Part shown: positions 5,676 through 58,236 of the stretch, one piece after another
Position numbering within the stretch: position 1 is the first letter of the stretch
Layout: every line of letters starts with the position of its first letter
NCBI GenBank assembly: GCA_021796435.1
Contig: JAJYXM010000016.1
Coordinates: 118,625-182,624, forward strand
Source of the DNA: a bacterium
GTDB taxonomy: Bacteria; Patescibacteriota; Patescibacteriia; 2-12-FULL-60-25
Reading direction: 5' to 3'
DNA length: 64,000 nucleotides
Position numbers and translations under genes: made by a program
The notes under the pieces: generated by a model
The model's input: only the letters and a program-made list of their open reading frames with translations
What the model was told of the DNA's origin: nothing
Databases searched by the model: none

Positions 5676-6946
5676 AGCACGAAGAGCAGGATCACGGCGC
5701 CGGTGGTCGCGAGCAGCGTCAGTCCTCCGAAGAAATTGGACCATCTACCGTTGACCCATTTGCCCATGATCTTTTTGTTGTTGGCCACCATCAGGATGAT
5801 GAGGACAAGGGGAGGGGTGACTACACCGTTCAGCACAGCGGTCCAATACAGGGCTTTGATGGGATTCAGACCGGAGAAATTAATCAGCAGACCGATCAGC
5901 GTAGCGATGGTGATGGCGCCGTAGAATCCATGAGCTTGTTTGAGTTTCTTGTATAGGCCACTTTTCCAACTTAAGGCTTCGGATAGGGCATAGGAGGCGG
6001 AAGCGGAAAGTACTGGAACGGCCAACAGACCTGTGCCGACGACGCCAAGCGCGAAAATGAATGAAGCGAAGCGCCCGGCCAGCGGCGCCAACGCTTCGGC
6101 GGCCTGGGCAGTAGTCTGCACGTCGTGCAAACCGTGGCTAAAGAACGTCCCGGCGGCCGTGACTATGATGAAAAAAGTGATGGTCTGCGAAAAGCTCATG
6201 CCGATGGCCGTATCGCGGCGCATCTTGCGCACATCCGTAGCCGCTGCTCCGCGGCGTTTCTTGATGCTCGTGCGACCGGCGGCGATCTCTTCCTCGATCT
6301 CCTCGCTCGCTTGCCAGATGAAGAGATAGGGGGAGATGGTGGTGCCGAGGAGCGCCACGAAACCAGTGACGAAATCACGATCGAAACGGAACATCGGGAT
6401 GAAGGCGGAGGATAGGACGGTGCCCCAGTCCGTAGTTACGATGAAAGCAGTCAACAGATAGCCCAAGAGACTCACGGCGAACCATTTCAGGACGGAAGCG
6501 TAAGTCTTATAGCTCAAGAAGATCTCAAGCACGAGGATCAGGACCGTATATCCGATGAGCAGGATGCTGAAAGGGATTGAGGGCAACAAAAGGCGCGTTG
6601 AGTCAGCCATGGCGCCGAGGTCAGAGCCGATGTTTATGGTATTGGCGATGAAGACGAGAACGACGACCAGCCACAGGACGGGTTTGGAATAATGCTTGCG
6701 CAGGATGCTGGCCAAGCCTTCGCCGGCGACCATACCGATACGTCCGACCATCTCTTGGATGGCGATCATGAGAGGCAGGTTGACGAAGGTGGTCCAAAGT
6801 TGGGCTAAACCGAACTGCGCACCGACTTGGGTGTAAGTCGCGATGCCCGAAGGATCATCGTCTGAAGCGCCAGTCACGAATCCAGGTCCGAGCTTGTCCC
6901 AGATCTTCTCCTTCTTCAGGTCGTTGTTTTTTTCCATCTGACTCAT
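5672..6946 (-). CDS. mntH: NRAMP-family divalent metal (Mn2+/Fe2+) transporter
   Basis: GPGFVTGASDDDPSGIATYTQVGAQFG motif; polytopic membrane protein of 424 aa. Confidence 0.85.
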   Translation of the reverse strand: MSQMEKNNDLKKEKIWDKLGPGFVTGASDDDPSGIATYTQVGAQFGLAQLWTTFVNLPLMIAIQEMVGRIGMVAGEGLASILRKHYSKPVLWLVVVLVFIANTINIGSDLGAMADSTRLLLPSIPFSILLIGYTVLILVLEIFLSYKTYASVLKWFAVSLLGYLLTAFIVTTDWGTVLSSAFIPMFRFDRDFVTGFVALLGTTISPYLFIWQASEEIEEEIAAGRTSIKKRRGAAATDVRKMRRDTAIGMSFSQTITFFIIVTAAGTFFSHGLHDVQTTAQAAEALAPLAGRFASFIFALGVVGTGLLAVPVLSASASYALSEALSWKSGLYKKLKQAHGFYGAITIATLIGLLINFSGLNPIKALYWTAVLNGVVTPPLVLIILMVANNKKIMGKWVNGRWSNFFGGLTLLATTGAVILLFVL

Positions 6947-7034
6947 TTTAGCATCATTTACGCCTTAGGTGATGGGCTTGAAAAAACGGCAGGCCTATGC
7001 TTAAGTTGTAGCGGTACTTTCAAGGAGAAGGAGG

Positions 7035-7415
7035 ATGCATCGGGGAATCTGCATCTGGATAATCGAGGATGGATTGTGCCGCGAGTGCGGACAAAATACC
7101 TTCAGACGTCTGGTGTTTTGGGTCGGCAACAAGCCGGTGCCCATCGACGGGTACTGCACCAACCGGGAATGCAATCCGAACTATCGTTCCATCGACGAGC
7201 TTCGATGCGGCGAGTCTACGGGTTTTACGCCTATCCTGGTCTTCGAAGCCCAGCTCTGTCCTTTGTGCAATCGAGGCGATGCCGTGGTCGTCTATCGCGG
7301 AAATGATTTTTTGGCCAGCGAGTGCCCGGACTGCATGATGGGTTCCGCGCCCTTGCTCGACAGACGGGCTTTCAGGCTCGAGCCGCCGCGCTGGAGCGGT
7401 GTCGGCAACAAGTGA
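7035..7415 (+). CDS. Cys-rich (zinc-ribbon-like) hypothetical protein
   Basis: Multiple CxxC pairs. Confidence 0.4.
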   Translation: MHRGICIWIIEDGLCRECGQNTFRRLVFWVGNKPVPIDGYCTNRECNPNYRSIDELRCGESTGFTPILVFEAQLCPLCNRGDAVVVYRGNDFLASECPDCMMGSAPLLDRRAFRLEPPRWSGVGNK

Positions 7416-7716
7416 CGCTTTCGGCTCCGATCCTATCTTGGGTCGGAGCTGCTTCGTAAGTTGTTATTTTTTTTCCGGTAGGTTAGGCTATGGTCGGATT
7501 ATGCTTCCTAATTCGAACCTCAAGTTGAGCAAACTCACGCAAACGCATCAGACGCACAGGACGCAGACATTGCAGGCGATTTCGCAGAAGGCACACGCCA
7601 TCGATTCGCGTATCGAATACCTGAAGGTGCAAGGCGAGAAAGCGCGTAGACTTTTGGATGATATGCCGGATGATGTCTCGTCACGCTTAGCCTGGCTAAA
7701 TTCACAGTTGAACTGA
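7399..7716 (+). CDS. hypothetical protein
   Basis: ORF only. Confidence 0.3.
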   Translation: MSATSDAFGSDPILGRSCFVSCYFFSGRLGYGRIMLPNSNLKLSKLTQTHQTHRTQTLQAISQKAHAIDSRIEYLKVQGEKARRLLDDMPDDVSSRLAWLNSQLN

Positions 7717-14104: not shown

Positions 14105-14617
14105 CTAGCGGTTTCGGGTCAGCTCATGAAGGCGATAGGGAGGCGGCCAGCCGGCGTGATCGAGGTCCGGGAATTCGTAGCGGTAAGGTCCGGGGTCTCT
14201 GGCACGGGCGCGAGCGATGGCTTGCGAATCCACGAACGGACCGATGGTGCGCTCCTTATCGTCGACCACGAAGTGTTTCGGCTGCCAGGGGAAACGCGGC
14301 GGGCGGGGAATCTCTTCCACGATGTCAGGACGCGAGTAGAAGAAGCAGACCTTGCCGGTCTCGGCTTCCTTCTCGGTGATCTGTGCGTCGCTCAAACGTT
14401 CGTTGCGTTTGCCTTGCGACACGATCTTGCCCGGCGAACCGGCGATGAGGATCCAGGCTACGTCCGGGTCGGCGAAAGCCTGGTCGGCGAGCGGCTTGTT
14501 CATGCAGAAAGCGAGATGGTGGACGCGTTCGCGTTCAGATTCTCCGAGCGCGGTGTATTCTTCTGGCGTCAAGGTGGAGATATCGAGGGTCGGGCGATCT
14601 GAAGGTGCATTGGGCAT
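14105..14617 (-). CDS. hypothetical protein
   Basis: ORF of 170 aa. Confidence 0.45.
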   Translation of the reverse strand: MPNAPSDRPTLDISTLTPEEYTALGESERERVHHLAFCMNKPLADQAFADPDVAWILIAGSPGKIVSQGKRNERLSDAQITEKEAETGKVCFFYSRPDIVEEIPRPPRFPWQPKHFVVDDKERTIGPFVDSQAIARARARDPGPYRYEFPDLDHAGWPPPYRLHELTRNR

Positions 14618-15114: not shown

Positions 15115-15189
15115 GCGGGTATCGTATAGTGGCTATTATGCGTCCTTGCCAAGGACGAGAGGCGGGTTCAATTCCCGCTACCCGCTCCA
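15115..15189 (+). tRNA. tRNA-Gly (anticodon GCC)
   Basis: Acceptor GCGGGTA/TACCCGC; anticodon stem CGTCC/GGACG with loop TTGCCAA; T-loop GGTTCAATTCC; encoded CCA. Confidence 0.8.
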
Positions 15190-15242: not shown

Positions 15243-16037
15243 TCAGGTCGAGACGGCTGCACATTGGTCCCACATGAAACGGAACCAGGTACGGTAGCAA
15301 TTCGCCAGCTCCTTGTTGACCATGACGATCAATGTGATGTCGTCCGTGATGTTCTTGAGCGTCAGGCCGGAGAAGGTGACCACGTGGTCGCCGAAGATAT
15401 CGATGGCTCCGTTAGTGGAGTATCGAGGGGGAAAGAAACGATATGGTCTGCCCAAGGTCTTGAGCAGTTCGGGAGCTAAAGTCTTGACCTCGGCGTCGAA
15501 GATGTGGCGATATCTGATTTTCTTTTCCTCGGCCTGTTTCAGGAATTTCTTGATGAACGTCTGGAGTTCAGGGTCGAACCAGCCGCCTTTGGCGCCGATG
15601 AAATAGACGTCTTCCCCGACTTCCAGGATATCGCGCAGATAGTTCTTGAAACCTTCGATTCCCTTGTAGATGAAGACTTCTTCTGCAGTATTGATCCGGT
15701 TGAATTCCTGGTTAAGGGCTGGCAGGATGCTGTTGAGTTTAGTCTCCTGTTCCCAGATCAGGTCGGAGAGTTTGCTTGGTTCGACGGGCGCGAAAAGGTT
15801 TCCTTTCGGGTCACTGATCTGGTAGATCAAGCCTTTCTTAAGGAGTTTGGGGATGAGGTCATAGATGTTGCGTTTGTGGACGCCGATCTTGAGCGAGATG
15901 TCGGGCACGGAGGCGGGTCCGAGTTCCAGAAGACCTAGGTATACTTTTGCTTCGTTGGGTGAGAGGCCAAGGTCCTCAAGTATTTCACGATACATATTTT
16001 TGAGTAGTGGTGGTATTTGCCACTCACGATATATCAT
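15243..16037 (-). CDS. TrmB-family transcriptional regulator
   Basis: N-terminal winged HTH (LSPNEAKVYLGLLELGPASVPDISLKIGVHKRNIYDLIPKLLKKGLI) plus a C-terminal TrmB-like domain. Confidence 0.6.
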   Translation of the reverse strand: MIYREWQIPPLLKNMYREILEDLGLSPNEAKVYLGLLELGPASVPDISLKIGVHKRNIYDLIPKLLKKGLIYQISDPKGNLFAPVEPSKLSDLIWEQETKLNSILPALNQEFNRINTAEEVFIYKGIEGFKNYLRDILEVGEDVYFIGAKGGWFDPELQTFIKKFLKQAEEKKIRYRHIFDAEVKTLAPELLKTLGRPYRFFPPRYSTNGAIDIFGDHVVTFSGLTLKNITDDITLIVMVNKELANCYRTWFRFMWDQCAAVST

Positions 16038-16059: not shown

Positions 16060-17613
16060 ATGTCGACGCAAACGTTATTGACGCTGACACCCGCTCAAGG
16101 CTATGGCCTGCTGTTTTTGTATGGGCTTTTCATGGTGGCGATCACTTGGCTTTTCGCGAGATGGAAGGCGTATCGTTCGATCCGTGGGTTTCTGGTGGCA
16201 GAAAGGAATGTGCCGTGGTGGCTGGGGGCGGCCAGCATAGCGGCGTCCTGGGTCTGGGCACCGGCTCTGTTCGTATCGGTGCAGATAGCTTATCAAAAAG
16301 GATTGCCGGGTATTTTTTGGTTCACTTTCCCGAACATCGTCGCCTTGCTGATCTATGTATTTCTCGCGCCACGGATCAGGGAAAAACTGCCGCACGGCTT
16401 TACCTTGCCCCAGTGGATCCTATATCGCCTTAAAAGCAAGCGGGTCCATAGGGTATATCTTTTCCCGTACTTCTTTTACCAACTCATGGCCGTATCGGTG
16501 CAGCTCTTCGCGGGCGGCAGCCTTGTCTCGTTGCTTACGGGCATCCCTTTGTTCAGCGCGATGTCGTTCATGGCCGTGACGGTGCTGGTTTATGCTTTCA
16601 TCTCCGGGTTGGAATCGTCATTCGTCACGGATCTCGTGCAATTCCTGCTGTTGATCATCGGTGTGGTCTTGGTCGTGCCTTGGGCCATAACTTCAGGCGG
16701 CGGATGGGCTGCGGTCGTGCAGGGGTCGGGAGGAGTGACGGGTGAGTTCAAGGATATCTTCGATCCTGGTGTCGCTTTCTCGTTCGGAATCGTGACGGCT
16801 ATCGGATTGATTTCCGGAGCGATCTCCGATCAGCAATATTGGCAGCGTGCGTTCTCGATAAAGAAGAGCAATCTAGTCCCGTCGTTCATCTTCGGCGCAA
16901 TCATCTTCGGGATAGTGCCGTTGGCGTTATCCGCCCTCGGTTTTTTGGCGGCGAACAGCGGTTTGGGTATAAGTCTGCCGCCAGGTGCGGATGTTTCGAT
17001 GATAGGGGTAGTAACCGTCAGCAGGCTTTTGCCTGCATGGGTGATGGCGATATTCGTAGTGATGCTGTTGAGCGCGTTGTATTCGACTTTGGATTCCGGT
17101 GTCGTGGCGGCGAGTTCGTTGTACGTCACCGACGTCATGCGATATACGGATCAGGAAAGGCAGATCTTGGAGAAGCTGGATGAAGGCGGACAGCTCGAAC
17201 AGGCTGAGGCGGAGATCGGCAAGGCATTGGATGTGCGAGGCGTGAGGAATGCGCGCTGGGCCATGCTCGGCATCACACTGTGCGGCTTCATCGTGGCTTT
17301 GGCGGCAAAGTATATACCGCATTTCGGTCTGGAGCAGCTGTGGTGGATCTTCAATACTGTCGCGGCATGCGTCGTCGTGCCGACGGTGTTGAGCCTGTAT
17401 TGGAAAGGATTGGATGAGCGTGGCGTGTTTTGGGGCGTGCTCGTCGCATTCGTCGTCGGGATGCCGCTATTCATCTACAGCAACATGATGAACAGGCCGG
17501 CTTGGATAGTCGGTGTGTCGTTAGGAATAGTCGGCGTCAGCCTAGCGTCTTGTCTCGCGTTATCGAAAAGCAAGAGAAAGGGTTTGGAGCTAAGCGGCGC
17601 GACGGTCGCATAA
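16060..17613 (+). CDS. sodium:solute symporter (SSS) family transporter
   Basis: 517-aa polytopic protein with SSF-like N-terminal region. Confidence 0.75.
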   Translation: MSTQTLLTLTPAQGYGLLFLYGLFMVAITWLFARWKAYRSIRGFLVAERNVPWWLGAASIAASWVWAPALFVSVQIAYQKGLPGIFWFTFPNIVALLIYVFLAPRIREKLPHGFTLPQWILYRLKSKRVHRVYLFPYFFYQLMAVSVQLFAGGSLVSLLTGIPLFSAMSFMAVTVLVYAFISGLESSFVTDLVQFLLLIIGVVLVVPWAITSGGGWAAVVQGSGGVTGEFKDIFDPGVAFSFGIVTAIGLISGAISDQQYWQRAFSIKKSNLVPSFIFGAIIFGIVPLALSALGFLAANSGLGISLPPGADVSMIGVVTVSRLLPAWVMAIFVVMLLSALYSTLDSGVVAASSLYVTDVMRYTDQERQILEKLDEGGQLEQAEAEIGKALDVRGVRNARWAMLGITLCGFIVALAAKYIPHFGLEQLWWIFNTVAACVVVPTVLSLYWKGLDERGVFWGVLVAFVVGMPLFIYSNMMNRPAWIVGVSLGIVGVSLASCLALSKSKRKGLELSGATVA

Positions 17614-17618
17614 AAAGA

Positions 17619-17672
17619 GAAACCGTCCCGATGGACAACCACAGAGTACGTGGTGAGTCGGGACGGCGATTT
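17619..17672 (-). terminator. terminator for the RT gene; copy 1 of a repeated palindromic element
   Basis: GCCGTCCCGA...TCGGGACGG hairpin followed on the minus strand by TTTCTCTTTTT. Confidence 0.6.
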
Positions 17673-18747
17673 AGGGACGGGGTCGGGTGAGAGGAACGAG
17701 GCCTTGGGCTACGGCTGCGCGGTAACGCGCGTAGGGCAGCTTGAGTTGCGAAGGTATGGAGCCGCAGTACACGGAGCGGACCCAGCCGAGCACGCCCTCG
17801 ACCTCTTCTTGGCTGCGTTCGCCACGGACGGCGTGATGCAGCAAGGAGCGGTATTGCCCCAGGCGCTTTCGTGAGAGCCGTACGTTGATGTAACGGTTCC
17901 AGGTTCCACCGCGCCACGAACGGATCGGTACCTTGAGTCCGTTGCCGTTCACGGATAGGCCGGTGACGCTGACTGAGCCATGCTTCAGATCCAATCGTCG
18001 TGTCTTGCGAGGATTGATGACGAAGCCGTACTCCGCGATGGTGCGCAGGAATTCTGGTACGGCCAGGTCGAGGAGCTCGGCGTAGTCGGAGGAGAGGCAT
18101 AGATCGTCGGCGTAACGCGTGTAGACGAGCCGCGGCCAGACGCCATCAGCGATCTTGATCCAGGCGTTCTGGATACGATAGTCCTGTTGGAGACGGCGGA
18201 TGGTTTGTTTCAGGGCTAGATCCAGATCGCGACAGGCGTAGTTCAGGAGTACGGGCGAGCTGGCTGCACCTTGGGGCAGCGAACCTTGGAAGGTCGTGAT
18301 CGCAGTCAACAGCTCGGCTTCTTCGGCGTTGAATCCGTAGCGTACAAGCAACTCGCGGAGGCGGCGGGCGTCGATCTGACCGAAAGCATCCTTGAGGTCG
18401 CAGATGAAGAAGTCGAAGCTCACGCGATGACGCAGTGCGTTGCTCATGGGCGAATGGCCAGGGACGAAACCGTGGACCGTGCGTGTCAGTCGGTCGTGCG
18501 CCAACTCACGAGGCAGGTGACGGCTTAAGACCGTGGCGATCGCCGATTGGGCTTTGGCCAGATCAGATGGAGCTTCGACGAGCTGGCGTGTGCCGCCGCT
18601 TTTCTTACGTCGGGTGAAGATGCGATAGTTTTCGCGCGACTGATATGCCGCTAGCAAGTCCTCCGGTGACAGCCGGAAGAGCGCGCAGAGCGCCGGCGTG
18701 ATCCCTTTCAGCGGATCGGCCGGGAAACGCAGTTCCTGCTGTTCCAT
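17671..18747 (-). CDS. retron-type reverse transcriptase
   Basis: RT motifs RRKKSGGTRQL, QGAASSPVLLNYA and YTRYADDL. Also the retron-characteristic NAxxH (SNALRH) and VTG (VSVTGLSVNG) motifs. Start taken at MEQQELRF; the in-frame upstream extension is probably leader RNA. Confidence 0.8.
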   Translation of the reverse strand: MEQQELRFPADPLKGITPALCALFRLSPEDLLAAYQSRENYRIFTRRKKSGGTRQLVEAPSDLAKAQSAIATVLSRHLPRELAHDRLTRTVHGFVPGHSPMSNALRHRVSFDFFICDLKDAFGQIDARRLRELLVRYGFNAEEAELLTAITTFQGSLPQGAASSPVLLNYACRDLDLALKQTIRRLQQDYRIQNAWIKIADGVWPRLVYTRYADDLCLSSDYAELLDLAVPEFLRTIAEYGFVINPRKTRRLDLKHGSVSVTGLSVNGNGLKVPIRSWRGGTWNRYINVRLSRKRLGQYRSLLHHAVRGERSQEEVEGVLGWVRSVYCGSIPSQLKLPYARYRAAVAQGLVPLTRPRP

Positions 18748-18965
18748 GATGACCTCGTTTTCAAAGTGCGGTTGACCGCGCCCCGCGAGTTGCGGGGTCG
18801 CGGCCAACCGAATCCACCAGAGCGCCTCTGTGCCGCATGCTGCATGCGAGCGGTTTGACGGCACGTCGCAACGACGCACCGGTGAGGGTTTCTAGGGCCA
18901 TCTTTACCTTTCCTTACGGATCGGCTCGGGGGGCCTATCCCCACAACTAGCCAGCTGGTGGACCT
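18748..18965 (-). ncRNA. candidate retron non-coding RNA (msr/msd) leader
   Basis: About 200 nt lie between a promoter-like TTGACG-N18-TAAAGT (around 18985-18955, minus strand) and the RT ATG. It contains a strong hairpin CCGCGACCCCGC-AACTC-GCGGGGCGCGG at 18769-18797 and the palindrome GCATGCAGCATGC. No a1/a2 repeats were confirmed. Confidence 0.3.
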
Positions 18966-19004
18966 GGGCAGACTTTAACCGTCAGAGAGACGTAACGTCA
19001 AATA

Positions 19005-19045
19005 AAAAGAAGAGCCGTCCCGATGGGCATCGGGACGGCTGTGGG
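19005..19045 (-). terminator. terminator; copy 2 of the repeated palindromic element
   Basis: CCGTCCCGATG-CCC-ATCGGGACGG followed on the minus strand by CTCTTCTTTTTATT. Confidence 0.6.
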
Positions 19046-19067: not shown

Positions 19068-19262
19068 TCACGTTGGATCCAGACGGATCAGTGCCGGACG
19101 CCACCTTTCGTCGGCAGGATCTTCGTCGATGCGACCATCCCGTGAGTCGGATCCGTGACTGTCTGCAGGTGTTGGCGGGGCATGGAGCAGTTGCCAGTCA
19201 GTGGCGAAACCCTCGTTTCCGCCGAGATCGATGTTCAGGCGCGGGACGATGCGACGTTGCAT
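19068..19262 (-). CDS. small Pro/Asp-rich protein, member of a tandem paralog set
   Basis: The ATG is preceded by the conserved junction ...CTGAAGAGGTGAACC. 64 aa. Confidence 0.4.
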   Translation of the reverse strand: MQRRIVPRLNIDLGGNEGFATDWQLLHAPPTPADSHGSDSRDGRIDEDPADERWRPALIRLDPT

Positions 19263-19265
19263 GGT

Positions 19266-19661
19266 TCACCTCTTCAGGGCGGATCGTCGGGTTTGGCGGC
19301 GCAGGTTCAGGAAGTACTGCATAGCCCTGGAGATATCCGCAGCCGTGTAGACCGTGCCTGGAGGGTCGATGGGACGAATGCCTTTGCAGGCCTCGGCTAG
19401 GGAGATCTGCTTTTGCGGTTGTCGTCCCAGTGGAGCGGCGCTGTTATCGGGGTCGGGAGGCTGGCTCACTTGAGTCGGACCCCAGTCTTCGAGTACGCCG
19501 GCTTCGGTGCCGGGTTCCGGAGGAGCGCATTGAGCACGTTCATACGCTTCATCGTCCATGGTGGTCTGGCCAATGCTGCGACCCTCGCAGGGCGACCGGC
19601 GGATGCGACCATCGTCGGGCGGAACCCACTTGGGTTCGTCGTCTTTCCAGTTTTCGCTCAT
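19266..19661 (-). CDS. small Pro-rich protein, member of a tandem paralog set
   Basis: The junction GAAGAGGTGGACC-ATG supplies an SD. Shares the motif GQTTMDDEAYERAQ with the 68-aa ORF. 131 aa. Confidence 0.45.
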   Translation of the reverse strand: MSENWKDDEPKWVPPDDGRIRRSPCEGRSIGQTTMDDEAYERAQCAPPEPGTEAGVLEDWGPTQVSQPPDPDNSAAPLGRQPQKQISLAEACKGIRPIDPPGTVYTAADISRAMQYFLNLRRQTRRSALKR

Positions 19662-19672
19662 GGTCCACCTCT

Positions 19673-20020
19673 TCAGAGCGGATCCTTGGGGCCGCCGACG
19701 CGTTCGGGAAGCCAGGGTTTGTCAGTGTCAGGATGCGGGATCCGGGGCGGGCAGAGCCGTGGCTGGGGAGGCCAGGGGCGCAGGATCTGCTCTTCGACGT
19801 ACGCGGCATTCGGAGACGAGTCGGTGGAGTCAGCATCTGTATCGACGATCGAGGAACAGGAGGGTGCCAACTCGTTGGGATCCGTGTCGAAGCGTCGTTC
19901 ACCGGTCGGGTCGGGATCGACGAAAGGCGGACTAGTAGGCGCCAGTTCGTTGGGATTGGCGTCGGGTCGGCGCGGCGGCGGTGGACCCCAGGGATGAATC
20001 AGCTTGTCGGCGCGGCTCAT
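19673..20020 (-). CDS. small Pro-rich protein, member of a tandem paralog set
   Basis: AAGGAGA is 9 nt before the ATG. Start and stop overlap the upstream gene as ATGA. 115 aa. Confidence 0.45.
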   Translation of the reverse strand: MSRADKLIHPWGPPPPRRPDANPNELAPTSPPFVDPDPTGERRFDTDPNELAPSCSSIVDTDADSTDSSPNAAYVEEQILRPWPPQPRLCPPRIPHPDTDKPWLPERVGGPKDPL

Positions 20021-20223
20021 GGCTCATTCTCCTTATCTGGAACACTTTGGTCGCGTAGGACTCCGGGAATAGCCAGACCGGCTTGAGCGTCCTCTTGCGC
20101 CTTGGCATAGTCTGCATCCGACATGGTCGTTTCGCCGTACTGGCGCGGACGGGGCGGATCGGGTTCGATGCGCGCGAATGGACTCGGAGTCCAGTCGATT
20201 TTGGGGATCAGTGGGTGGCTCAT
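20017..20223 (-). CDS. small protein
   Basis: 68 aa; GETTMSDADYAKAQ motif; translationally coupled. Confidence 0.4.
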   Translation of the reverse strand: MSHPLIPKIDWTPSPFARIEPDPPRPRQYGETTMSDADYAKAQEDAQAGLAIPGVLRDQSVPDKENEP

Positions 20224-20435
20224 TTTTCTTCGATGACCTCCGAAAGGTCTACACGGGGCGTTGTCCAGTCGCCGACCAGACCGCTGTGGAATGAGCAGGG
20301 ATTCTGATCTTCTGCCCAGTGTCGGAGTGCAGCATCCAGATGGCGAACGCGTTCTTCGGGCGTTCGGTTCGAACCCAGAAGTCGGCCGAACAGAGATTGT
20401 ATTGCGCTTGGCTGTTTGGATTGGTTGTCGGGCAT
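20220..20435 (-). CDS. small protein
   Basis: 71 aa; start and stop overlap neighbouring genes. Confidence 0.35.
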   Translation of the reverse strand: MPDNQSKQPSAIQSLFGRLLGSNRTPEERVRHLDAALRHWAEDQNPCSFHSGLVGDWTTPRVDLSEVIEEK

Positions 20436-20450
20436 CGTGTGAACCTCCGT

Positions 20451-20639
20451 TCAGCGGTAGATGACTCGGGTGTGGGCTCGGGCTTTGGAGCGGGCGAGGA
20501 AGGCGTGGTGTTCTTCCGCAGCTTTGCGGAGTTGCTGCCTGGTTACAGCTTCGGCCCGCTCTTGTCCTTCGGGCGAGTCGAGTTCAGCGCGGATCCGATC
20601 GAATTCCGCCTGGATTTTCGTTTTCGTCTCTTCGTCCAT
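20451..20639 (-). CDS. small charged helical protein
   Basis: 62 aa; first ORF of the operon. Confidence 0.35.
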   Translation of the reverse strand: MDEETKTKIQAEFDRIRAELDSPEGQERAEAVTRQQLRKAAEEHHAFLARSKARAHTRVIYR

Positions 20640-20769
20640 GGAAACCTCATTGGGAAGGAGCAGCTAACGCTTAGACGGTAACAAGGTGAGCATCATTAAT
20701 CAAATTCAACAGGAGAGATTCTTCGCGGATGACTGGATTCCCCGGTCAAGCCGTGGAATGACAGATGAG

Positions 20770-20820
20770 AAAGCCGTCCCGGAGGTCACCACGTAGGACA
20801 CGGCGAGTCGGGACGGCAGT
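20770..20820 (-). terminator. terminator; copy 3 of the repeated palindromic element
   Basis: GCCGTCCCGG...TCGGGACGGC, about 80% identical to copy 1 and followed by a T-rich stretch on the minus strand. Confidence 0.5.
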
Positions 20821-20829
20821 GGAGAGGGG

Positions 20830-21936
20830 TTAGTGCTCGGGTGGGGCGAAGACGCCGCACCAGTCGAATTTGCGGAAGCGGCGGCGGACGGCGAGGACTT
20901 CGGCTACGCCGATGATCTCCCGCCTGACCGATATTACCTTGCTCAGTAAGTAGGATGTGACGTCGGGGTGATCCGGTGCATTTTCCTTGTCGAAGCGGAA
21001 TTCGCCTTTGACTTCTTCGCCGTTCTTGAGTCGGAGCTTGGCCCAGTAATCCCCGTAGGGATTCTTGCCCGGATCGAAACGACCGTGGAACCGGCTTCCA
21101 TCCGCGAATTCGATGCTGAATTTCGTTAGTTTGCCGGCAAGGAGCTGCTCGAATTGTCGGATTGCCTCGTGGATCCAGAGCTGATCGCTGCGCAGCGGTC
21201 GGGGTTCTGGGTCGTTGCTGCCTTCGTGCCAGATGTAGCCGTCATCGAAGAATACGGCGCGTCTTGGCGGTTTCTCGTCGTAGCAGCCGCTTGAGTGCAG
21301 GTCGCGTTCGAGGCGTACGCCGTGGCATTCGACGATGTGCTGTACGTCGTTACGCGGGTTCACCACGAATTTGCGGCCGAAGCGGTAGACCGGATCCTCC
21401 ATGACACAGTCCGGGAACACGATGTCGCCCGCGAGGTGCTGGTCGCCGACAGCATAGAACCAGGGCGTCTGGAGTCCGCAGTAAACCGTGCGCAGAAAAC
21501 CCGGGCATGCGGCAAGCTTGTCTTCGCGGCCCTTGACGCGGAAGACCTTCTGCACCGCGGCGAGCAGGTGCTCGAGCGAAGCGAACTCCGCGAAGCTGGT
21601 GCCGTCGTCGCTCCAGTCTTCATGTAGCACGAAACCGCAGCGGCCGTCGGGTGCATCCTTGATCTCCAACGCCTCGACAAAGCCCTGGATCTCGCTTTCG
21701 CAATCGCTGCAGCCGTATTTGTGCTGTACGATCTCGAAGCGCGTGTGCATACGGTAGGCGCCATGCACGACGTTCTTGACGAGGCCGGTGGTCGGCGGTT
21801 TGATTTCGCCGAAGAGCTTGAGCGCCTCGAGGGCCTTTTCGCGGTCTTCGCGCCGACAGGTGAAATGGACCAGCCAACCTTCGGCGGTCTTGCCTTCAAC
21901 ATCCACTGGATCCATCAGCCGATGAGAGTCTGACAT
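20830..21936 (-). CDS. hypothetical protein, orphan in this window
   Basis: 368-aa ORF with strong coding character (Cys/His/Trp-rich) and no motif I recognise. It lies upstream on the same strand as the small-ORF operon and the RT. Confidence 0.55.
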   Translation of the reverse strand: MSDSHRLMDPVDVEGKTAEGWLVHFTCRREDREKALEALKLFGEIKPPTTGLVKNVVHGAYRMHTRFEIVQHKYGCSDCESEIQGFVEALEIKDAPDGRCGFVLHEDWSDDGTSFAEFASLEHLLAAVQKVFRVKGREDKLAACPGFLRTVYCGLQTPWFYAVGDQHLAGDIVFPDCVMEDPVYRFGRKFVVNPRNDVQHIVECHGVRLERDLHSSGCYDEKPPRRAVFFDDGYIWHEGSNDPEPRPLRSDQLWIHEAIRQFEQLLAGKLTKFSIEFADGSRFHGRFDPGKNPYGDYWAKLRLKNGEEVKGEFRFDKENAPDHPDVTSYLLSKVISVRREIIGVAEVLAVRRRFRKFDWCGVFAPPEH

Positions 21937-31848: not shown

Positions 31849-32457
31849 TTATAGAATCTTAATTATTCCAATAATTGCATCTGATTTCTTATCTTGATTT
31901 TTAAAAACAAAACCATCCTTCTTTATTTCTTTCTCTCTTCCTTTGTATCTATGTTCAACTCTTTCTAATTGAGATAAATCATAAACGATGGCTATATCAA
32001 CTTTTACAGGTTTGTTCCTGTCAGCTATTGGCCAAAAATAAAATGGCTCGAGAAAATGTTTAAAATATTCATCATTCTTTTTGACTTTGAAATCCAATGC
32101 AAAAAAGTCGATATGCTTGTTATCAAGATTTTCATATCTGTCACCCTTCCGCTTTGGATTATATCTGTCGTATCCTAATTTTTTTATTATTTTGATTAAA
32201 TCATCTATTGTTTTTCCTTTGTGTTCATCTGAACCTAAAACTCTAATAGCGACTTTTTTGCCTAGAAAATGAGATTTTAAACATTTATCAATTTTTTTAC
32301 CTATCTTTTCAAAATCAGGAACATTATCCCAATATATTTTTGGAATTTTGATGTTGTACCAAGGTGTTCCTGCATAATCCATTTTATTTTTGGTGTTTTT
32401 GAAATTTTTAAGTTTATATTCAGGAACACTGACTTGATAGATTGGAATTTTAGCCAT
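31849..32457 (-). CDS. hypothetical protein (AT-rich, Lys-rich)
   Basis: 202-aa ORF in a markedly AT-rich segment. Confidence 0.4.
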   Translation of the reverse strand: MAKIPIYQVSVPEYKLKNFKNTKNKMDYAGTPWYNIKIPKIYWDNVPDFEKIGKKIDKCLKSHFLGKKVAIRVLGSDEHKGKTIDDLIKIIKKLGYDRYNPKRKGDRYENLDNKHIDFFALDFKVKKNDEYFKHFLEPFYFWPIADRNKPVKVDIAIVYDLSQLERVEHRYKGREKEIKKDGFVFKNQDKKSDAIIGIIKIL

Positions 32458-32637
32458 AGTTATCTTAAAGATGGTTTTGTTTTATAAGCTTTTACATCAA
32501 AGTGCCCAAAGAAAAATTGTGTATAACTCGTTTTTGTGCGCAGTGATTGTGGTTTAGGCTGCGATATTGGCATGTTAGACGATGTGTGTTAGCTAGTAAA
32601 TAAGGTGCACGTTCGTAATCCATGTTTATTCTTAGCC

Positions 32638-33462
32638 ATGTTTTTTATGTTGGAGAGATGTCTGCAGAAGACGGCTGACGAAATACGTTTGCGCAATTAT
32701 AGTCGCAAGACCATTAGCGCGTATTTGGCTTGTATAAAGGATTTTTTGTCTAAGAATCCGAATTGCTGTGAACATTGTGATGAGGAAGTAATTCGTCGTT
32801 TTTTGTTGGACAAACATGAAAAGGATTATTCGCCACAAACCGTGAATTTATACTTGAATGCAATCAAATATTATTATCTTGATGTTTTGCGTCTGGGCGT
32901 AAAAATCAATATCAGATTCGCCAAGCGATCAAAGAGGCTGCCTGTCGTGCTGTCTCGTGGTGAGATAGCACGCTTGCTTTCGACCATCAGGAACAACAAA
33001 CATAAGGTTTTGGTGGCCTTAGCTTATGGCGCTGGTATGCGCGTCAGCGAAATAGTCAGGTTGAGGGTCGGCGACGTGTTGTTGGACGAGCTTGTTTTGC
33101 ATATCAAACAAGCCAAGGGGGCCAAAGATAGGATTACAGTAATGCCGGAAAGATTGGCAGATGAGCTGCGTGCTCTGATGGCCGGAAAAGCTCGGGAAGA
33201 TTTTGTTTTTTCCAGCGAACGCGGCGGTCGACTTTCTGAGAGGACGGCGCAGGTTGTGTTCGAACGTGCATTAGTATCAGCCGGGATAGGCAAAACCGCA
33301 ACTTTCCACTCGTTACGTCATAGTTTTGCTACGCATTTACTGGAGAATGGGGTGGATGTGCGTTATGTGCAGGAACTTTTGGGACATCAGAACATACGCA
33401 CGACCCAAATCTACACGCATGTGACTGATCCGGGCATCAGGGGGATAAAAAGTCCGTTTTGA
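32638..33462 (+). CDS. tyrosine site-specific recombinase (XerC/D/integrase family)
   Basis: Catalytic pattern R...HSLRHSFATHLL...R..LLGH....T.IYTHV. Confidence 0.75.
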   Translation: MFFMLERCLQKTADEIRLRNYSRKTISAYLACIKDFLSKNPNCCEHCDEEVIRRFLLDKHEKDYSPQTVNLYLNAIKYYYLDVLRLGVKINIRFAKRSKRLPVVLSRGEIARLLSTIRNNKHKVLVALAYGAGMRVSEIVRLRVGDVLLDELVLHIKQAKGAKDRITVMPERLADELRALMAGKAREDFVFSSERGGRLSERTAQVVFERALVSAGIGKTATFHSLRHSFATHLLENGVDVRYVQELLGHQNIRTTQIYTHVTDPGIRGIKSPF

Positions 33463-48941: not shown

Positions 48942-51173
48942 ATGACAAGGAAACTCTTTTTCGTAGTCTTCGGTCTGTCCACGCTCATCAATTGCGGGCC
49001 GCAATACGATCCGGAAAACGGAGCGCCTGAAAGCACACAGGATCCGCTCCAGATCGACCAGCAGACGGGTGTGCCGTACGCCAACACCTACCAGTATCCG
49101 ATCCAGGGCTTCAACGCATCGGACTTCGGCTTCGGTTTCGGCAGCATGAACGACCTGATCTGCATGAGCCGCGACAAGGATGGGCAGTGCTTGGCCTTCG
49201 GCTACCACCTGGCGCACGATTCACTCGTCGGACGTACGCCTTACGGCAAGGAAGTCCTGGCGCCGGCCGACGGCATCGTGCGCGTCACGACGGACCTCAC
49301 CTTCAGGGGCTATGGTTCCACCAGCAGCGGCAACAGCAACTACTACGGTTGCGTGCTCGTGCTCGAGCATGAATTCCCTGACGGCAGTCCGTTCACGACT
49401 TTGCTTGGGCACGTGCAGTGCGAGTCGACCACGAACTATGATCCGGCGGCGCGCATCGGCAATCCGGCGCGTGGGACGATCGTACGGCGCGGACAGTACG
49501 TCGGTCATGTAGGACACTATTGGTACGGCGCCGGCAAGACCACGGATTGGCACCACGTCCATTGGGGTAACCGTAAGGGCGCGTTCACGGCGACGAGCTA
49601 TACGCGTTCCGGCGTAGGCGTCTGGGTGCGCGGCTATGCTGCACGGAGCGAGTTCAGCAAGGATCCGCAGACCGGGAAGCTGGTGCACCCCGAATGGTTC
49701 GACCCGATCGATACGGTCAAGAAGTACGGCGATCCGGCCCTTACGCCGGATGTCGGAGTACGCCATCACCCGCCGGGCTCGATGCTGGAGGATCAGCAAG
49801 GGACGTTCTGGCTGGTGACGAATGAGGCGGAAATCGCCAAGCTGCCGACGGCAGTCATCGCATCCGACCACTATGACACTTCATTGGCGGCACGTGCGTC
49901 GCAGGACGAACTCGATTGCTACGCGCATGCGGCGGACATCAAATCGTTCGGCAGCGTCACTCTTTACCAACGGCCGGGTACGCACACGGTGGTCATGGCG
50001 TATGACGACAAGAAAGAACGCTACGACGTGATCCGCCAGGAAGCGCTCTATTCCTGGGGTTATAACTTCCAGGGACTTACGACGGATGCGTCCAAGATCC
50101 AGAAGTGTGAGAACGCATATGCAGCGCGCGGATTCCGCCAGCTGCGTCCGGGCTCGCTCATCAAGGCTGACGAAGAGAGTGAGGTCTCCATCGTCACGCC
50201 GTGGCAGACGCGACGGCCGATCGGCACGGGTGAGATCTACGAGAAGCTCGGTTATTCTTGGGACCGCATCATGTCCGTGCCATATGACGTCATCGACGCG
50301 GTGGCCGGGGTGCGTGAGTCCAATATCGTGGATTACGACTCCATCTTCGCCTGTGCCTTGCCGGCACCTTGTCCATCAGACGGTATGTGCGGCGGCGGCG
50401 ATGATCCGGAAGACTACGTCGATGATGTCGGAGATGTGTCGGAGCAGGACGCGGGCGCATCGACGGAGGGCGGGACGGAACAGCTTGACTCAGGCGCGCC
50501 AGCCGAGGCCTCTGCGACCACGGAATCATGCAACGGCTTGGACGACGACGGCAACGGCCAGATCGATGAAATCTTCATGTGCCGTCTCGGGGCAGTCGGC
50601 GGCGGCTGCGTGACTTCCTGCGGCAGCGCCGGATATCTGGTGTGCACGGCGCCGGCCTGTAGCTGGGGCGAGTGCCACAGCTATCCCGAGGATTGCAGCA
50701 ATACGATCGACGACGACTGCAACGGTCTGGTCGATTGCGCGGATCCTGCGTGTGCCAAAGACGCAAACTGCCAAACTGAAGCAGATGCCGGCATGCTGGC
50801 GGGACAGATTCGATTCATCTATGACGGGCCAGCGAGTCCGGGGAGCATCAAGCTCATGGCTTGGTGGCAGCCTCCGGAGACTGAGCCTCGGATCTGGGAC
50901 GAGGTGACGGATTGCCTGGATGCTGTGCCGGATGATGGCCGTTTCGACTGTACCTTCTTGGTACCGTCGGGTACGGGCCCCCTTGAATTCCAGGTGAATC
51001 TGCCTGATGGCAGCTACTGGGGTGACGAATCGTGCGACCAGATGGGCGGTTGTGGTTCGACCATCGGCACGACCAAGGTCTATGGCTCGGCAGGTGAGTT
51101 GGAGATCAAGATGGTCCCCAATAACGACCAAGGCCAGCCTTACTATAACGGTCATATCGACTCGGTTCCGTGA
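48942..51173 (+). CDS. large secreted protein with M23-like metallopeptidase region and C-terminal Cys-rich repeats
   Basis: Lipobox-like N-terminus; HxxxD...HxH-like motifs; repeated CNGLDDDGNG/CNGLVDC-type Cys/Asp repeats; GC-rich. Confidence 0.5.
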   Translation: MTRKLFFVVFGLSTLINCGPQYDPENGAPESTQDPLQIDQQTGVPYANTYQYPIQGFNASDFGFGFGSMNDLICMSRDKDGQCLAFGYHLAHDSLVGRTPYGKEVLAPADGIVRVTTDLTFRGYGSTSSGNSNYYGCVLVLEHEFPDGSPFTTLLGHVQCESTTNYDPAARIGNPARGTIVRRGQYVGHVGHYWYGAGKTTDWHHVHWGNRKGAFTATSYTRSGVGVWVRGYAARSEFSKDPQTGKLVHPEWFDPIDTVKKYGDPALTPDVGVRHHPPGSMLEDQQGTFWLVTNEAEIAKLPTAVIASDHYDTSLAARASQDELDCYAHAADIKSFGSVTLYQRPGTHTVVMAYDDKKERYDVIRQEALYSWGYNFQGLTTDASKIQKCENAYAARGFRQLRPGSLIKADEESEVSIVTPWQTRRPIGTGEIYEKLGYSWDRIMSVPYDVIDAVAGVRESNIVDYDSIFACALPAPCPSDGMCGGGDDPEDYVDDVGDVSEQDAGASTEGGTEQLDSGAPAEASATTESCNGLDDDGNGQIDEIFMCRLGAVGGGCVTSCGSAGYLVCTAPACSWGECHSYPEDCSNTIDDDCNGLVDCADPACAKDANCQTEADAGMLAGQIRFIYDGPASPGSIKLMAWWQPPETEPRIWDEVTDCLDAVPDDGRFDCTFLVPSGTGPLEFQVNLPDGSYWGDESCDQMGGCGSTIGTTKVYGSAGELEIKMVPNNDQGQPYYNGHIDSVP

Positions 51174-55540: not shown

Positions 55541-56032
55541 GCGGGGAGGATACAGCAAAGGAGAGTTTTTTCATTTGTTCCGGAACTCGCTTGTTTTTTG
55601 TCATCCCGCACTCCCGCCCGCAACGCCTTGCTTGCATGGCGGGCGCGGTGATGCGGGATCTGGATCCAGGGTCTTTGCCCGGGACGACAGGCTGAGCAAA
55701 AGAAAACAAAAAAATCACCCCGATGGATTCATCTCGCGATGGATCATCGGGGTGATTTATTCCCGGACCGGAAGCTGCAAAGAGCTGCCACGCCAAGTAA
55801 ACGGCTGTACCCATGTGAGGAGAGAGAATCCCTCAATGAAGAGGGAAACCACGGATATTACCATTAGAAGCGTACAACACTTCGCAGCTCCCGGGCCGGG
55901 AATCCGCATACGGTAGGTGGCGCTACATTCTTTGTCAAGATGAAAACTTCGCATCCTTCTTCGGTCAACCGTCAGTATGGCGGATCGAAGGAGGTGTCCG
56001 ACCGGTAAGGGAGCCCGGTCGGAAGAGTCGTC

Positions 56033-56740
56033 CTAGTATTGGAGCGGATCGGAGGCTTCGACGAAGCGCAACAGCTTGTCGATGCTGATCCACTTGTCGT
56101 CGCAAGTGGCGTGCGCTTTGCGCAGGGTCTCTTCGGTACTTGCGCAGCGGGAGAAGCCGGCGGGAAAGCCGGAACCGTCGGTGCGCTTGAAGAGCGGGAT
56201 CCAGCCACGCACGGAGTATGGGCGCAGGTAGGCCTCGTCATCGTGCTTGTAGAACGGCGCCGGGATGATGGCGAAGATTTCGCGGTCCAGACGCATCTCA
56301 GGACGGCGCAAGATGATGGACAGGATGAAAGCCAGGATGAAGTGGGCCCAAGCCCGGAAGTCGTGCCACGAAGCAGGCGTCGCGATATCACGCGGACGAT
56401 ACAGGATGAACACCACCGTGGGGTGCAGATCGATAGTCCGGATGAGCGGGCGCAAGTTGGCGCTTCCGCGGAGTGCCGGACTCGAGATGCGCTCCTCGTC
56501 GGGAAGAGCGATACCTTCTTCGTCCGCAGACGCTACATCGGACGAAGTCGGAGGACTGCTCTTGCGCAGGAAGAGCTCTGAGGCATCGATGAGGACGCCG
56601 TCCGATTGCCTCGCGCGCGATTTTTGAGTCACGTTCCCACTCTTCATCGTACTGCTCCAGACGAATCCTAGGACGTTGGAAATGAAAAGATCCCTTAAGT
56701 CCTTCATAGCATGATGTTGCCCTTTTGGCAAGGTATGCAC
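56033..56740 (-). CDS. hypothetical protein
   Basis: ORF in a GC-rich minus-strand cluster. Confidence 0.4.
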   Translation of the reverse strand: MHTLPKGQHHAMKDLRDLFISNVLGFVWSSTMKSGNVTQKSRARQSDGVLIDASELFLRKSSPPTSSDVASADEEGIALPDEERISSPALRGSANLRPLIRTIDLHPTVVFILYRPRDIATPASWHDFRAWAHFILAFILSIILRRPEMRLDREIFAIIPAPFYKHDDEAYLRPYSVRGWIPLFKRTDGSGFPAGFSRCASTEETLRKAHATCDDKWISIDKLLRFVEASDPLQY

Positions 56741-56808
56741 CTATGGAAGATTTAAGGGATCCCGCAAAGCCGAGAGATTGAGCTTTGCGGAACGGTTGTG
56801 AGACGGGG

Positions 56809-58236
56809 TCAGTCGAGCGCGTCGGCGGTAGCCGGCGTGAACTCGACATGCGTTTCGGTGGCAGGAGCTGCTTCGGCCTTGGTGGCTTCTGCAGCGGTTT
56901 CGGTGGCGGGAGGCTCCGCGGTCGCGCCTTCGGGCTGCTCGGTGGCAGCGTCGGCAGCGACTTCGGGGCTGCTGTCGGGTGAACTGTCGTCCGCGGCGGC
57001 GACGGCTTTGGGGCCATCGTCCTCCTCGGAGCTGTCTTCGGTTGCATCGCCTGCGCCTTCCTCCGCCGAAGCGGATTGGGTCGTGGAATCGTCCGAAGCA
57101 CCCGTCGTGGCGTCGTCGTTGACTGCGGCGGCGTCGGCGGATGAGGTACTTTCGTCCGTACCGGCGAGCAGGTCGTCGAGGTCCACCTTCTCGATTCCTT
57201 CGTTGTCCTTGTCGGCGGTGATGGCCTCGGCGGTGCCTTCGAGGAGTTTGTCCAAGAAAGCGACGCTATCTTCGGGGGTGGGGCACATGGAGAGCCAGCT
57301 CACCATCAAGCTGAACCCCTCCACCGTCGGCTCCTCATTGGAGTAGTCGAAGCCTGGGAGGATGAGCGTCTGATAGGTCCAGATGGCGACCTTGATCAGC
57401 GGCAGCTCGATGATGAAGATGAGCCCGCGTCCATCGCGGCCCGCTGCTCCGACGGAGATCGGCCGATCCGTAGGCGCTCGTCGCGCGCCGCGGGATGGCA
57501 TGTAGCCCACGATGACGTGTGTCGCGACCGTGCTCTGGCCACGGCTGTCGTTGACCACATGGCCGGCCAGCCGAACGAACTTTGTGGGTCCGTTCTTCCG
57601 GCCGAAGATCTTGAAGGTCTCGCCCACGGGTCGGTTCATGGCCCGGCTGAGGTCGTACAGGTTGACCCTGTATGACTCGCCCCGCTTGATGGGCACACTC
57701 ACCTGGCGCCGATTGCCGTCACGGTCCGTGCGGTCGATCATCTGATGGGTGTCGGGCCTGATCACCACGACGTCCATCACGCCCTCCTTGAGGGCCGCCT
57801 TGATCTGCTTGCCACTGGATCGGATTGCCGGAAGCTTCAGGGCGTCGTCCGGGGATTCCTGATCGAATCTCCCGTACTCGAGGTCGAGGTAGCGCTCGTA
57901 CTCCAGGAGCGCAAGCTCCTGGTAGTGGTTGAACTGTCGCCGAGCCTTCTCGTCGAGCGCCGCGATCTGTTCCGGTGCGACGAGTTCCGGATCCAGACTG
58001 AGCTGCATGATGGACAGCTCGCGGCTGGAAACCAGAACCGGGAACCCGCCGCTGCACTTCGGGACGTTGCTGACGACCAGCCGCATACCGGGCGGGGGTG
58101 TGATTCCAGGCACCAGATTGCTCAGGCCCGTGGTGAACAGCTGCCGCACTCCGTTCGGGGCGGGACAGGTCTGCTGCTCGAGCGCGTCGTAGAGCTTGCG
58201 ATTCTCGGCCCGCTTCTCTTCTTCGGTCTTCTTCAT
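56809..58236 (-). CDS. hypothetical protein with a long acidic Ala/Asp/Glu/Thr-rich C-terminal tail
   Basis: Start taken at MKKTEEEK. Globular N-terminal region of about 340 aa followed by a roughly 130-aa acidic low-complexity tail. Confidence 0.45.
   Translation of the reverse strand: MKKTEEEKRAENRKLYDALEQQTCPAPNGVRQLFTTGLSNLVPGITPPPGMRLVVSNVPKCSGGFPVLVSSRELSIMQLSLDPELVAPEQIAALDEKARRQFNHYQELALLEYERYLDLEYGRFDQESPDDALKLPAIRSSGKQIKAALKEGVMDVVVIRPDTHQMIDRTDRDGNRRQVSVPIKRGESYRVNLYDLSRAMNRPVGETFKIFGRKNGPTKFVRLAGHVVNDSRGQSTVATHVIVGYMPSRGARRAPTDRPISVGAAGRDGRGLIFIIELPLIKVAIWTYQTLILPGFDYSNEEPTVEGFSLMVSWLSMCPTPEDSVAFLDKLLEGTAEAITADKDNEGIEKVDLDDLLAGTDESTSSADAAAVNDDATTGASDDSTTQSASAEEGAGDATEDSSEEDDGPKAVAAADDSSPDSSPEVAADAATEQPEGATAEPPATETAAEATKAEAAPATETHVEFTPATADALD

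Follow-up and report, generated by a model that had tools for sequence, protein, structure and literature searches.

Six very small open reading frames (ORFs) stand in a row immediately upstream of a retron-type reverse transcriptase (RT) gene in a 64-kb stretch of a Patescibacteria genome (contig JAJYXM010000016.1, positions 118,625 to 182,624; the whole stretch is referred to here as the window), which raises the question of whether they belong to the retron or form a system of their own. A first-pass annotation, made from the sequence alone, had suggested that they could be accessory or effector components of the retron. The answer favored here, with rather better than even confidence, is that they constitute a self-contained six-gene operon of one Patescibacteria clade that stands apart from the retron, and that their products are translationally coupled disordered ligands whose genes are exchanged as cassettes. 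The layout of the operon, its independence from the RT, and the fusions that join its members in other genomes can all be read from the related Patescibacteria loci (L002 to L018) that were recovered by profile and pattern searches and compared with the window.

A Conserved Operon of Six Small Genes

The ORFs annotated at positions 19068 to 20639 are present on the minus strand, and an independent gene caller gave the same six on the same contig; in operon order they are o62, o71, o68, o115, o131, and o64 (Table 1). All of them have a Shine-Dalgarno (SD)-like site 5-14 nt before the ATG, and the GC content of the three codon positions follows the order GC1 > GC3 > GC2 in the called frames. Stops within the operon overlap the next start or stand no more than 15 nt from it. 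Overlaps of the ATGA type, which had been described as occurring throughout, are found at only two of the five junctions (o71/o68 and o68/o115), the remaining spacers measuring 15, 11, and 3 nt, and the commonest boundary layout across all loci is CTGA-AGGAG/AGAGG-N6-8-ATG. The annotation had also described an operon with translational coupling. The closely spaced genes of this operon are real, and the layout of each gene boundary probably leads to coupled translation of the six ORFs in comparable amounts.

Evidence that these ORFs are genes comes from their relatives. Among 5.8 billion proteins, o131 has a single homologue (P0002; 67% identity, 69% of the query), and the contig that carries it, L002, contains homologues of o71, o68, o115, and o131 in the same order. 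Between the window and L002, the ratio of nonsynonymous to synonymous substitution rates (dN/dS) is 0.07 for o68 (81% amino acid identity), 0.10 for o115 (85%), 0.22 for o71 (64% over 59 aa), and 0.31 for the shared 87 aa of o131 (69%). In the codon-aligned comparison most of the differences fall on third codon positions, with counts by codon position of 11/8/31 in o68 and 14/7/43 in o115. The neighboring genes are less similar between these two loci than the small genes are, with identities of 45% for the LTD protein and 53% for p368. In L007, the closest strain, the homologues of o71 and o64 are 94% and 83% identical to those of the window (dN/dS of o64, 0.21), and dN/dS of the small genes ranges from 0.12 to 0.41; for o62 it is 0.10-0.30. 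Five of the six ORFs therefore have both relatives in other Patescibacteria genomes and signs of purifying selection (dN/dS 0.07-0.41).

A row of this kind could also consist of spurious ORFs, of pseudogene fragments of one decayed larger gene, or of a non-coding repeat array, given that high GC content yields long ORFs on both strands and that some of the modules are found fused elsewhere. The long plus-strand ORFs of the window, however, are not kept intact in L002, while on the minus strand the gene boundaries, including the ATGA overlaps, are kept in the window, L007, and L002, and an SD accompanies every ORF. Tandem Repeats Finder detected no tandem repeats in the region, and Rfam searches, whether run with the gathering threshold or with E <= 1, returned only tRNAs and spurious XIST-repeat matches on the terminators. 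The first-pass annotation had allowed that the nucleotide repeats might be conserved and the ORFs not; it is the ORFs that are conserved, and as proteins. A dN/dS well below 1 in the called frames, together with the third-position bias, identifies the small ORFs as protein-coding genes under purifying selection as opposed to a repeat array, and this group of alternatives, refuted by that substitution pattern, is extremely improbable.

Independence From the Neighboring Retron

The small genes appear to be transcribed separately, as one unit, because a conserved promoter layout precedes them and a terminator of their own follows them. The putative promoter upstream of o62 leaves a 5' leader of ~35 nt that contains GCTCCTTCC and the SD GAGG, and its layout, TTGnnn-17-TG-T-TA(C/A)(C/A)(G/C)T, recurs in five loci (the window, L003, L007, L008, and L009), each time ahead of the o62 homologue. 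The intrinsic terminator after o64 is the best-scoring terminator-like site between 15000 and 22200. Directly after it, and before the retron RNA, lies a promoter-like site, TTGACG-18-TAAAGT, at 19001-18972.

The annotation had placed the small genes directly upstream of a retron module on the same strand, and the RT is confirmed at that place, with the terminator and the promoter-like site in between. NAxxH and VTG motifs are defining for retron RTs, and SNALRH and SVTGLS are visible in the RT translation. Retrons are classified into types I-XIII; with the PADLOC models used as a proxy for this classification, the best matches of the RT are spread over types XII, XI, III-A, and II-A. The 236 nt upstream of the RT (18740-18975, minus strand) fold at -109 kcal/mol (z = -3.97 versus shuffled sequences) and have no Rfam match; the putative retron RNA is placed at ~18750-18975. 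No recognisable effector gene was found near the retron in the window, a scan of genome contigs with the RT as query gave no match, and a literature search for retrons in Patescibacteria gave nothing relevant.

Some observations favor the small proteins as accessory or effector components of this retron: their genes adjoin, on the same strand and immediately upstream, a retron-type RT with a strongly folding upstream region, the retron has no recognisable effector gene in the window, and intact o64 is seen only in the two RT-bearing genomes. Co-occurrence with the RT across relatives, which had been proposed as a check, is largely lacking, and this speaks against such an assignment. In a tblastn comparison across the loci, in which absence refers to the fetched flanks of each locus, the RT was found only in the window and L007, and since the flanks of L007 are 96.8-98.3% identical to those of the window, the two RT loci amount to one observation. 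Small-gene families without an RT, on the other hand, are present in six loci. L002 carries the four genes named above; L008 has o62, a fusion of o68 with the 59-aa gene f59, and a degraded o64 remnant; L009 has f59, an o62 pseudogene with a frameshift, and a gene that joins o68 to the C-terminus of o115; and L010, L013, and L018 have a two-module o68-like gene, a solitary o68-like gene, and an o131-like gene, respectively. In L007, moreover, o64 and the retron RNA are separated by a 251-aa gene that is missing in the window and whose product resembles HATPase_c only weakly (E = 0.08).

The proteins themselves point in the same direction. PADLOC gave no significant match for any of the six, the best being that of o62 to unrelated models (E = 0.014-0.032), and none is similar to any PADLOC retron effector model. 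The small genes thus differ from retron accessory and effector genes in lacking an RT at most loci, in their own promoter and terminator, and in sequence. A role as retron accessory or effector components is very improbable overall, and for o62 through o131 it is largely refuted. Removing this tempting assignment leaves the retron of the window without a recognisable effector. Several variable insertions seem to occupy the interval between the small-gene operon and a tRNA-Gly gene, and the retron appears to be one of them.

Shared Motifs, Fusions, and a Candidate Partner

None of the six proteins has a match in Pfam, NCBIfam, PHROGs, or PADLOC, the extra proteins of the related loci gave nothing significant in family libraries, and searches of PDB sequences found no match to the profiles of o62 and o68 or to o115, o71, and p170 (a conserved protein described below). 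The peptide motif that the annotation had seen in two members is real and belongs to a module of ~55 aa that o68 and o131 share (BLASTP E = 3e-6). Pairwise comparison of the six peptides, also proposed at the time, gave this pair and no other that is significantly similar. The o68 protein is one copy of the module (W-T-P-S-P-F-A-R-I ... G-E-T-T-M-S-D-x-D-Y-x-K-A-Q ... L-R-D-W). Residues 1-70 of o131 are a paralogue of it, and the C-terminal half of o131 is unique to this genome. With a profile of the o68/o131 module, HMMER retrieved 10 proteins at E <= 1e-3 from 1.84 billion cluster representatives, one of them probably a low-complexity match, and all members with a source name are from metagenome-assembled genomes of Patescibacteria.

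Related short motifs recur in the other Pro-rich members. The o115 protein contains 23% Pro and has a pI of 4.6; it features the motif PPFVDPDP, the segment W-P-P-Q-P-R-L, and an internal repeat, D-x-[ND]-P-N-E-L-A-P, at residues 20 and 45, and o64 has W-R-P-A-L-I-R-L near its C-terminus. The description of the proteins as Pro/Asp-rich and disordered applies to o68, o115, o131, and o64, which are acidic and Pro/Trp-rich (Pro 11-23%, pI 4.5-5.2) with a grand average of hydropathy (GRAVY) near -1, and which are probably disordered in view of this composition and of the coil that AlphaFold2 (AF2) predicts in the N-terminal part of o131. It does not apply to o62 (Pro 2%, pI 8.2), in which a C-terminal stretch, AAEEH.AFLARSKARAHTR.IYR, is nearly invariant, or to o71 (Pro 7%, pI 5.5).

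Modules of these proteins are also found joined to one another. Beyond the fusions already mentioned, in which o68 is combined with f59 (L008), with the o115 C-terminus (L009), or with a second module (L010), the 199-aa protein P0033 contains an o68 module (E = 8e-19), a segment of the p170 tail (E = 9e-9), and an o115-like module (E = 7e-7). The p170 gene lies on the other side of tRNA-Gly in the window, and the C-terminal tail of its product, IGPFVDS...YRYEFP...GWPPPYRL, contains short motifs of the same kind as those of the small proteins and is homologous to the middle of P0033. In L018, at the same tRNA-Gly, a gene of its own (70 aa) encodes the p170 tail. The gene row there includes an o131-like gene, a 177-aa gene whose N-terminus, MQRRLVP, resembles the MQRRIVP of o64, and the p170 N-domain (124 aa, E ~1e-13). 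Because the modules are fused in varying combinations that include the p170 tail, it is most likely that the proteins act together. The small proteins have in p170 a candidate for a partner or a relative.

The Junction Repeat and Probable Cassette Exchange

A 25-nt junction sequence had been reported at three sites, before the 64-, 131-, and 115-aa ORFs. The sequence in question, GGATCCGCYCTGAAGAGGTGRACCATG, occurs only twice, where zero occurrences are expected by chance: it precedes o131 and o64 as described, and it is not found before o115, which itself precedes copy 1 and whose upstream sequence, AAGGAGAATGAGCC-ATG, differs from the junction. The two copies are identical at 24 of 27 positions, and a lower similarity extends over 43 nt (79% identity). 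The stop codons touch or overlap the SD in them, so that the reported embedding of a stop in the next SD is borne out at this repeat. The repeat is read in two frames, ending o115 as ..KDPL* and o131 as ..SALKR*, and in o131 the final ~40 nt duplicate the 3' end of o115 in a shifted frame. The start-to-start spacing of the copies is 399 nt, and they bracket the o131 cassette exactly.

It is this bracketed gene that differs in the closest strain: the slot between o115 and o64 is occupied by o131 in the window and by the unrelated f59 in L007, which amounts to cassette replacement in the o131 slot. Four loci (the window, L002, L007, and L009) share the junction that follows an o115-type 3' end (GATCCGCTCTGA-AGAGGT/AGGAG-N-ATG), and the gene that comes after it is o131 or f59. 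Because the copies bracket exactly the exchangeable o131 cassette, we conclude that the repeat is probably a recombination scar at a cassette boundary that incidentally supplies the SD of the next gene. No inverted repeat was reported at either copy, nor is one seen on reading the boundary sequences.

Exchange also appears to affect whole alleles. Between the window and L007, whose flanks are nearly identical, core genes have a synonymous divergence (dS) of 0.006-0.04, and the small ORFs are only 85% identical, with a dS of 0.55 for o62, 1.07 for o68, 0.52 for o115, and 0.46 for o64; o71 has a dS of 0.06. The o115 of L007 shares 93% identity with its L002 counterpart, even though LTD protein identity between these two loci is only 45%. 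Since dS of the small genes is high relative to that of the core genes while their dN/dS remains at 0.12-0.41, these values point to allele replacement through recombination and not to relaxed or diversifying selection. This indicates that whole alleles have been replaced horizontally with purifying selection retained.

An alternative possibility, and one that is compatible with the explanation favored here, is that the repeated junction is mainly a functional element of translational coupling or regulation, with the stop placed in the SD, that is maintained by selection. The contact between stops and SD and the retention of the element after o115 in four genomes are consistent with this. Other junctions of the same operon have different sequences, however, and the similarity continues for another 16 nt into the preceding coding sequences, which are read in different frames, so that selection on the SD alone would be insufficient to account for it; furthermore, what the two copies enclose is precisely the gene for which the closest strain has a replacement. 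A primarily regulatory role is therefore regarded as possible but doubtful, and a recombination scar remains the preferred interpretation of the repeat.

A Proposed Mechanism

The likeliest interpretation of these features is that the operon encodes co-translated disordered ligands of a common partner. Transcription would begin at the conserved promoter upstream of o62 and end at the hairpin terminator after o64, as the conservation of these sites suggests, and the individual SDs and tight spacing would yield the six proteins at similar levels through coupled translation. Four of the products, o68, o115, o131, and o64, are built from the modules W-x-P-x(2-5)-R-[IL], PF[VI]D, DxxPNEL, and TMSDxDYxxAQ, and may act together as disordered peptide ligands of one folded protein that they have in common as a partner, or may mimic the p170 tail. 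The junction, 27 nt in its core and 43 nt in its extended form, would be a duplicated o115 3' end plus SD around a swappable o131 cassette. Genes would be exchanged by recombination at stop/SD/start boundaries, and whole alleles would be replaced horizontally.

Several points weigh against this explanation. The conservation of the junction could reflect a good reinitiation site, instead of or besides recombination, and neither a recombinase nor an integrase was observed in the vicinity. The selection estimates come from two or three comparator genomes and from short genes. The disorder of o131 is predicted by single-sequence AF2 (coil at residues 1-87, helix at 107-130), which cannot tell disorder from missing evolutionary information. 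The motif W-x-P-x(2-5)-R-[IL], shared by the four Pro-rich proteins, has 4 matches in the 511 aa of the small proteins versus 3 in the 39,718 aa of background ORFs, an enrichment that is inflated by the definition of the motif after the sequences had been viewed. As for the link to p170, the loci L005 and L006 have tail-less p170 homologues and no small ORFs, a pattern that is only suggestive, and L009 has small ORFs and no p170 within the fetched 13 kb.

A more specific reading can be offered as a tentative possibility. In it, the operon would be a Patescibacteria-specific system of co-translated disordered proteins with shared motifs (W-x-P...R-[IL], PFVD) that act on p170 or mimic its tail, and the repertoire would be diversified by cassette swapping at the stop/SD/start junctions, giving a combinatorial "motif array." The logic would be like that of cassette or immunity arrays, except that the array would be built from peptide-ligand modules. 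The novelty of the system is meant in a limited sense: the proteins match no described family and the arrangement fits no known system by the features tested, and no demonstrated new mechanism is claimed. Genomes of the candidate phyla radiation (CPR)/Patescibacteria are rich in unannotated small genes, and the present locus provides one group that is coding, selected, linked by fusions, and apparently recombining at its junctions, with defined motifs and a candidate partner as a concrete handle.

A Variable Neighborhood Next to tRNA-Gly

The small-gene operon belongs to a variable neighborhood between an LTD surface-protein gene and tRNA-Gly(GCC) (15115-15189). The segment that separates p368 from this tRNA has a different content in every genome examined; in the window it comprises the retron, genes for an SSF transporter and TrmB, and the six small genes. 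In L003-L006, tRNA-Gly(GCC) comes directly after the p368 homologue or is separated from it by o62 only. The presence or absence of p368, an orphan family member that is absent from L007, L008, and L009, is independent of that of the small ORFs. Homologues of o62, the most widespread member, were found in L003/L004, L007, L008, L009 (frameshifted), L015, L016, and L017. Among the loci examined, the window and L007 alone have TrmB and SSF in the interval from the retron to tRNA-Gly, and these two genes belong to the variable segment as well; in the other relatives the tRNA comes directly after p359 or after small genes.

Three related hairpin terminators are found in this region, after p368 (20772-20822), o64 (18997-19044), and the RT (17605-17667), with the stem CCGTCCCG/CGGGACGG. 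Of the seven CCGTCCCG sites in the 64-kb window, six belong to these hairpins, which are confined to this region. Similar pairs of terminators followed by a T-run flank a 338-aa gene in L002 (10630-10665 and 11772-11805) and the 251-aa gene of L007 (7969-8030 and 8975-9010). As repeated terminators flank these genes, whole transcription units seem to be gained and lost between them.

Variability of this kind is also what would be expected if the cluster were cargo of a degraded integrative mobile element, with its products acting as conflict proteins (e.g., small acidic anti-defence, addiction, or takeover proteins) in a tRNA-adjacent hotspot. The variable segment ends at the 3' end of tRNA-Gly and holds the retron and other variable genes, family members lie near tRNA-Ser in L010 and L016 with integrase fragments nearby in L010, the alleles are mosaic and horizontally replaced, and the proteins are small, acidic, and without homologues. 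When the locus is compared with a tRNA island, variable presence at a conserved tRNA-flanked site is indeed found, but an integrase and a direct repeat of the tRNA 3' end are not: no integrase is present among the ORFs at 15.2-22 kb (TrmB, SSF, RT, the six small ORFs, and p368), and the tRNA 3' end recurs only as a chance-like 18-nt, 78% match inside the TrmB gene, which is no convincing att repeat.

Searches for mobile relatives likewise gave nothing. The small proteins have no match in PHROG, just as they have none in PADLOC; no relative of the o68 module, o62, or o115 was found in IMG/VR viral contigs; and tblastn gave no match in 50,697 GenBank phage records. The GC content of the region is raised (0.58-0.63), and this was considered as a sign of foreign origin and rejected: GC3 of the small genes is 0.54-0.70, compared with 0.62-0.73 in most large ORFs compared. 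As GC3 is no higher than in the large ORFs and resembles that of core genes, the GC excess reflects Pro, Asp, Arg, Gly, and Ala codons and not foreign codon usage. Selection on the small genes is purifying as opposed to diversifying, and the occurrence of a related gene row in L018, a more distant genome, at this same tRNA and beside the core-like p170 suggests an old resident neighborhood. An origin as mobile-element cargo is therefore judged unlikely, and a resident operon with exchangeable genes is preferred.

Comparison With Known Systems

Integron cassette arrays resemble the operon in that small same-strand genes are gained, lost, and swapped at short conserved boundaries. The differences are considerable. 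No integron integrase was seen among the ORFs at 15.2-22 kb, and the boundary is a 27-43-nt stop/SD/start segment and not an attC hairpin; the hairpins of the region are found only after whole transcription units and resemble ordinary terminators. In addition, the breakpoints lie inside coding 3' ends, and the small genes, probably linked in translation, form one operon with a single promoter and terminator.

Phages and the leading regions of plasmids have clusters of small acidic genes with anti-defence or early functions. Like these, the present genes are tiny, acidic, homologue-less, close-set, mosaic, and near defence genes. Unlike them, they are without phage or plasmid context or homology, they show purifying selection and host-like codon usage, and a genome further removed has a related gene row beside the same tRNA-Gly.

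Among disordered proteins, antitoxin tails, FlgM, and proline-rich peptides such as apidaecin and Bac7 exert their effects by way of short linear motifs. The small proteins show a resemblance only, in their low hydrophobicity, high Pro/Asp content, PQPRL/PPRIPHP-like motifs, and modular fusion and fission. The likeness to proline-rich antimicrobial peptides was not adopted as an explanation and may reflect composition alone.

Table 1. Features of the operon and its surroundings in the window
Feature	Position	Strand	Description
Putative promoter	20675-20703	minus	-35 TTGATT (20703-20698), 17-nt spacer, extended -10 TGTTACCGT (20683-20675)
o62	20451-20639	minus	62 aa; first operon gene
o71	20220-20435	minus	71 aa; SD GGAGG, 15 nt past o62 stop
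o68	20017-20223	minus	68 aa; start overlaps o71 stop (ATGA)
o115	19673-20020	minus	115 aa; start overlaps o68 stop (ATGA)
o131	19266-19661	minus	131 aa; chimeric
o64	19068-19262	minus	64 aa; acidic; last operon gene
Junction repeat, copy 1	19659-19701 (27-nt core 19659-19685)	minus	o115 3' end ..GGPKDPL*, SD GAGGTG, o131 ATG
Junction repeat, copy 2	19260-19302 (27-nt core 19260-19286)	minus	o131 3' end ..RRSALKR*, SD GAGGTG overlapping TGA stop, o64 ATG
Intrinsic terminator	19013-19040	minus	12-bp stem AGCCGTCCCGAT/ATCGGGACGGCT, 4-nt loop, then CTTCTTTTTA
Retron-type RT	17671-18747	minus	PADLOC retron RT models E ~1e-39; Pfam RVT_1 4e-16
SSF transporter	16060-17613	plus	
TrmB	15243-16037	minus	
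p368	20830-21936	minus	Orphan family of 22 proteins, without Pfam domain
p170	14105-14617	minus	Conserved 170-aa protein, without known domain

Additional Observations

Solitary members of two of the families stand at comparable distances from tRNA-Ser genes. In L016, a member of the o62 family (5983-6189) lies ~130 nt upstream of tRNA-Ser (6324-6413), and in L010, a member of the o68 family (6896-7273) lies ~130 nt upstream of tRNA-Ser (7402-7489), with the integrase fragments just past the tRNA. Elsewhere in the window, composition outliers occur at 32001-33000, 49001-51000, and 56001-58000, one of them with a GC content of 0.34 and two with 0.61-0.63, against a background of ~0.52-0.55.

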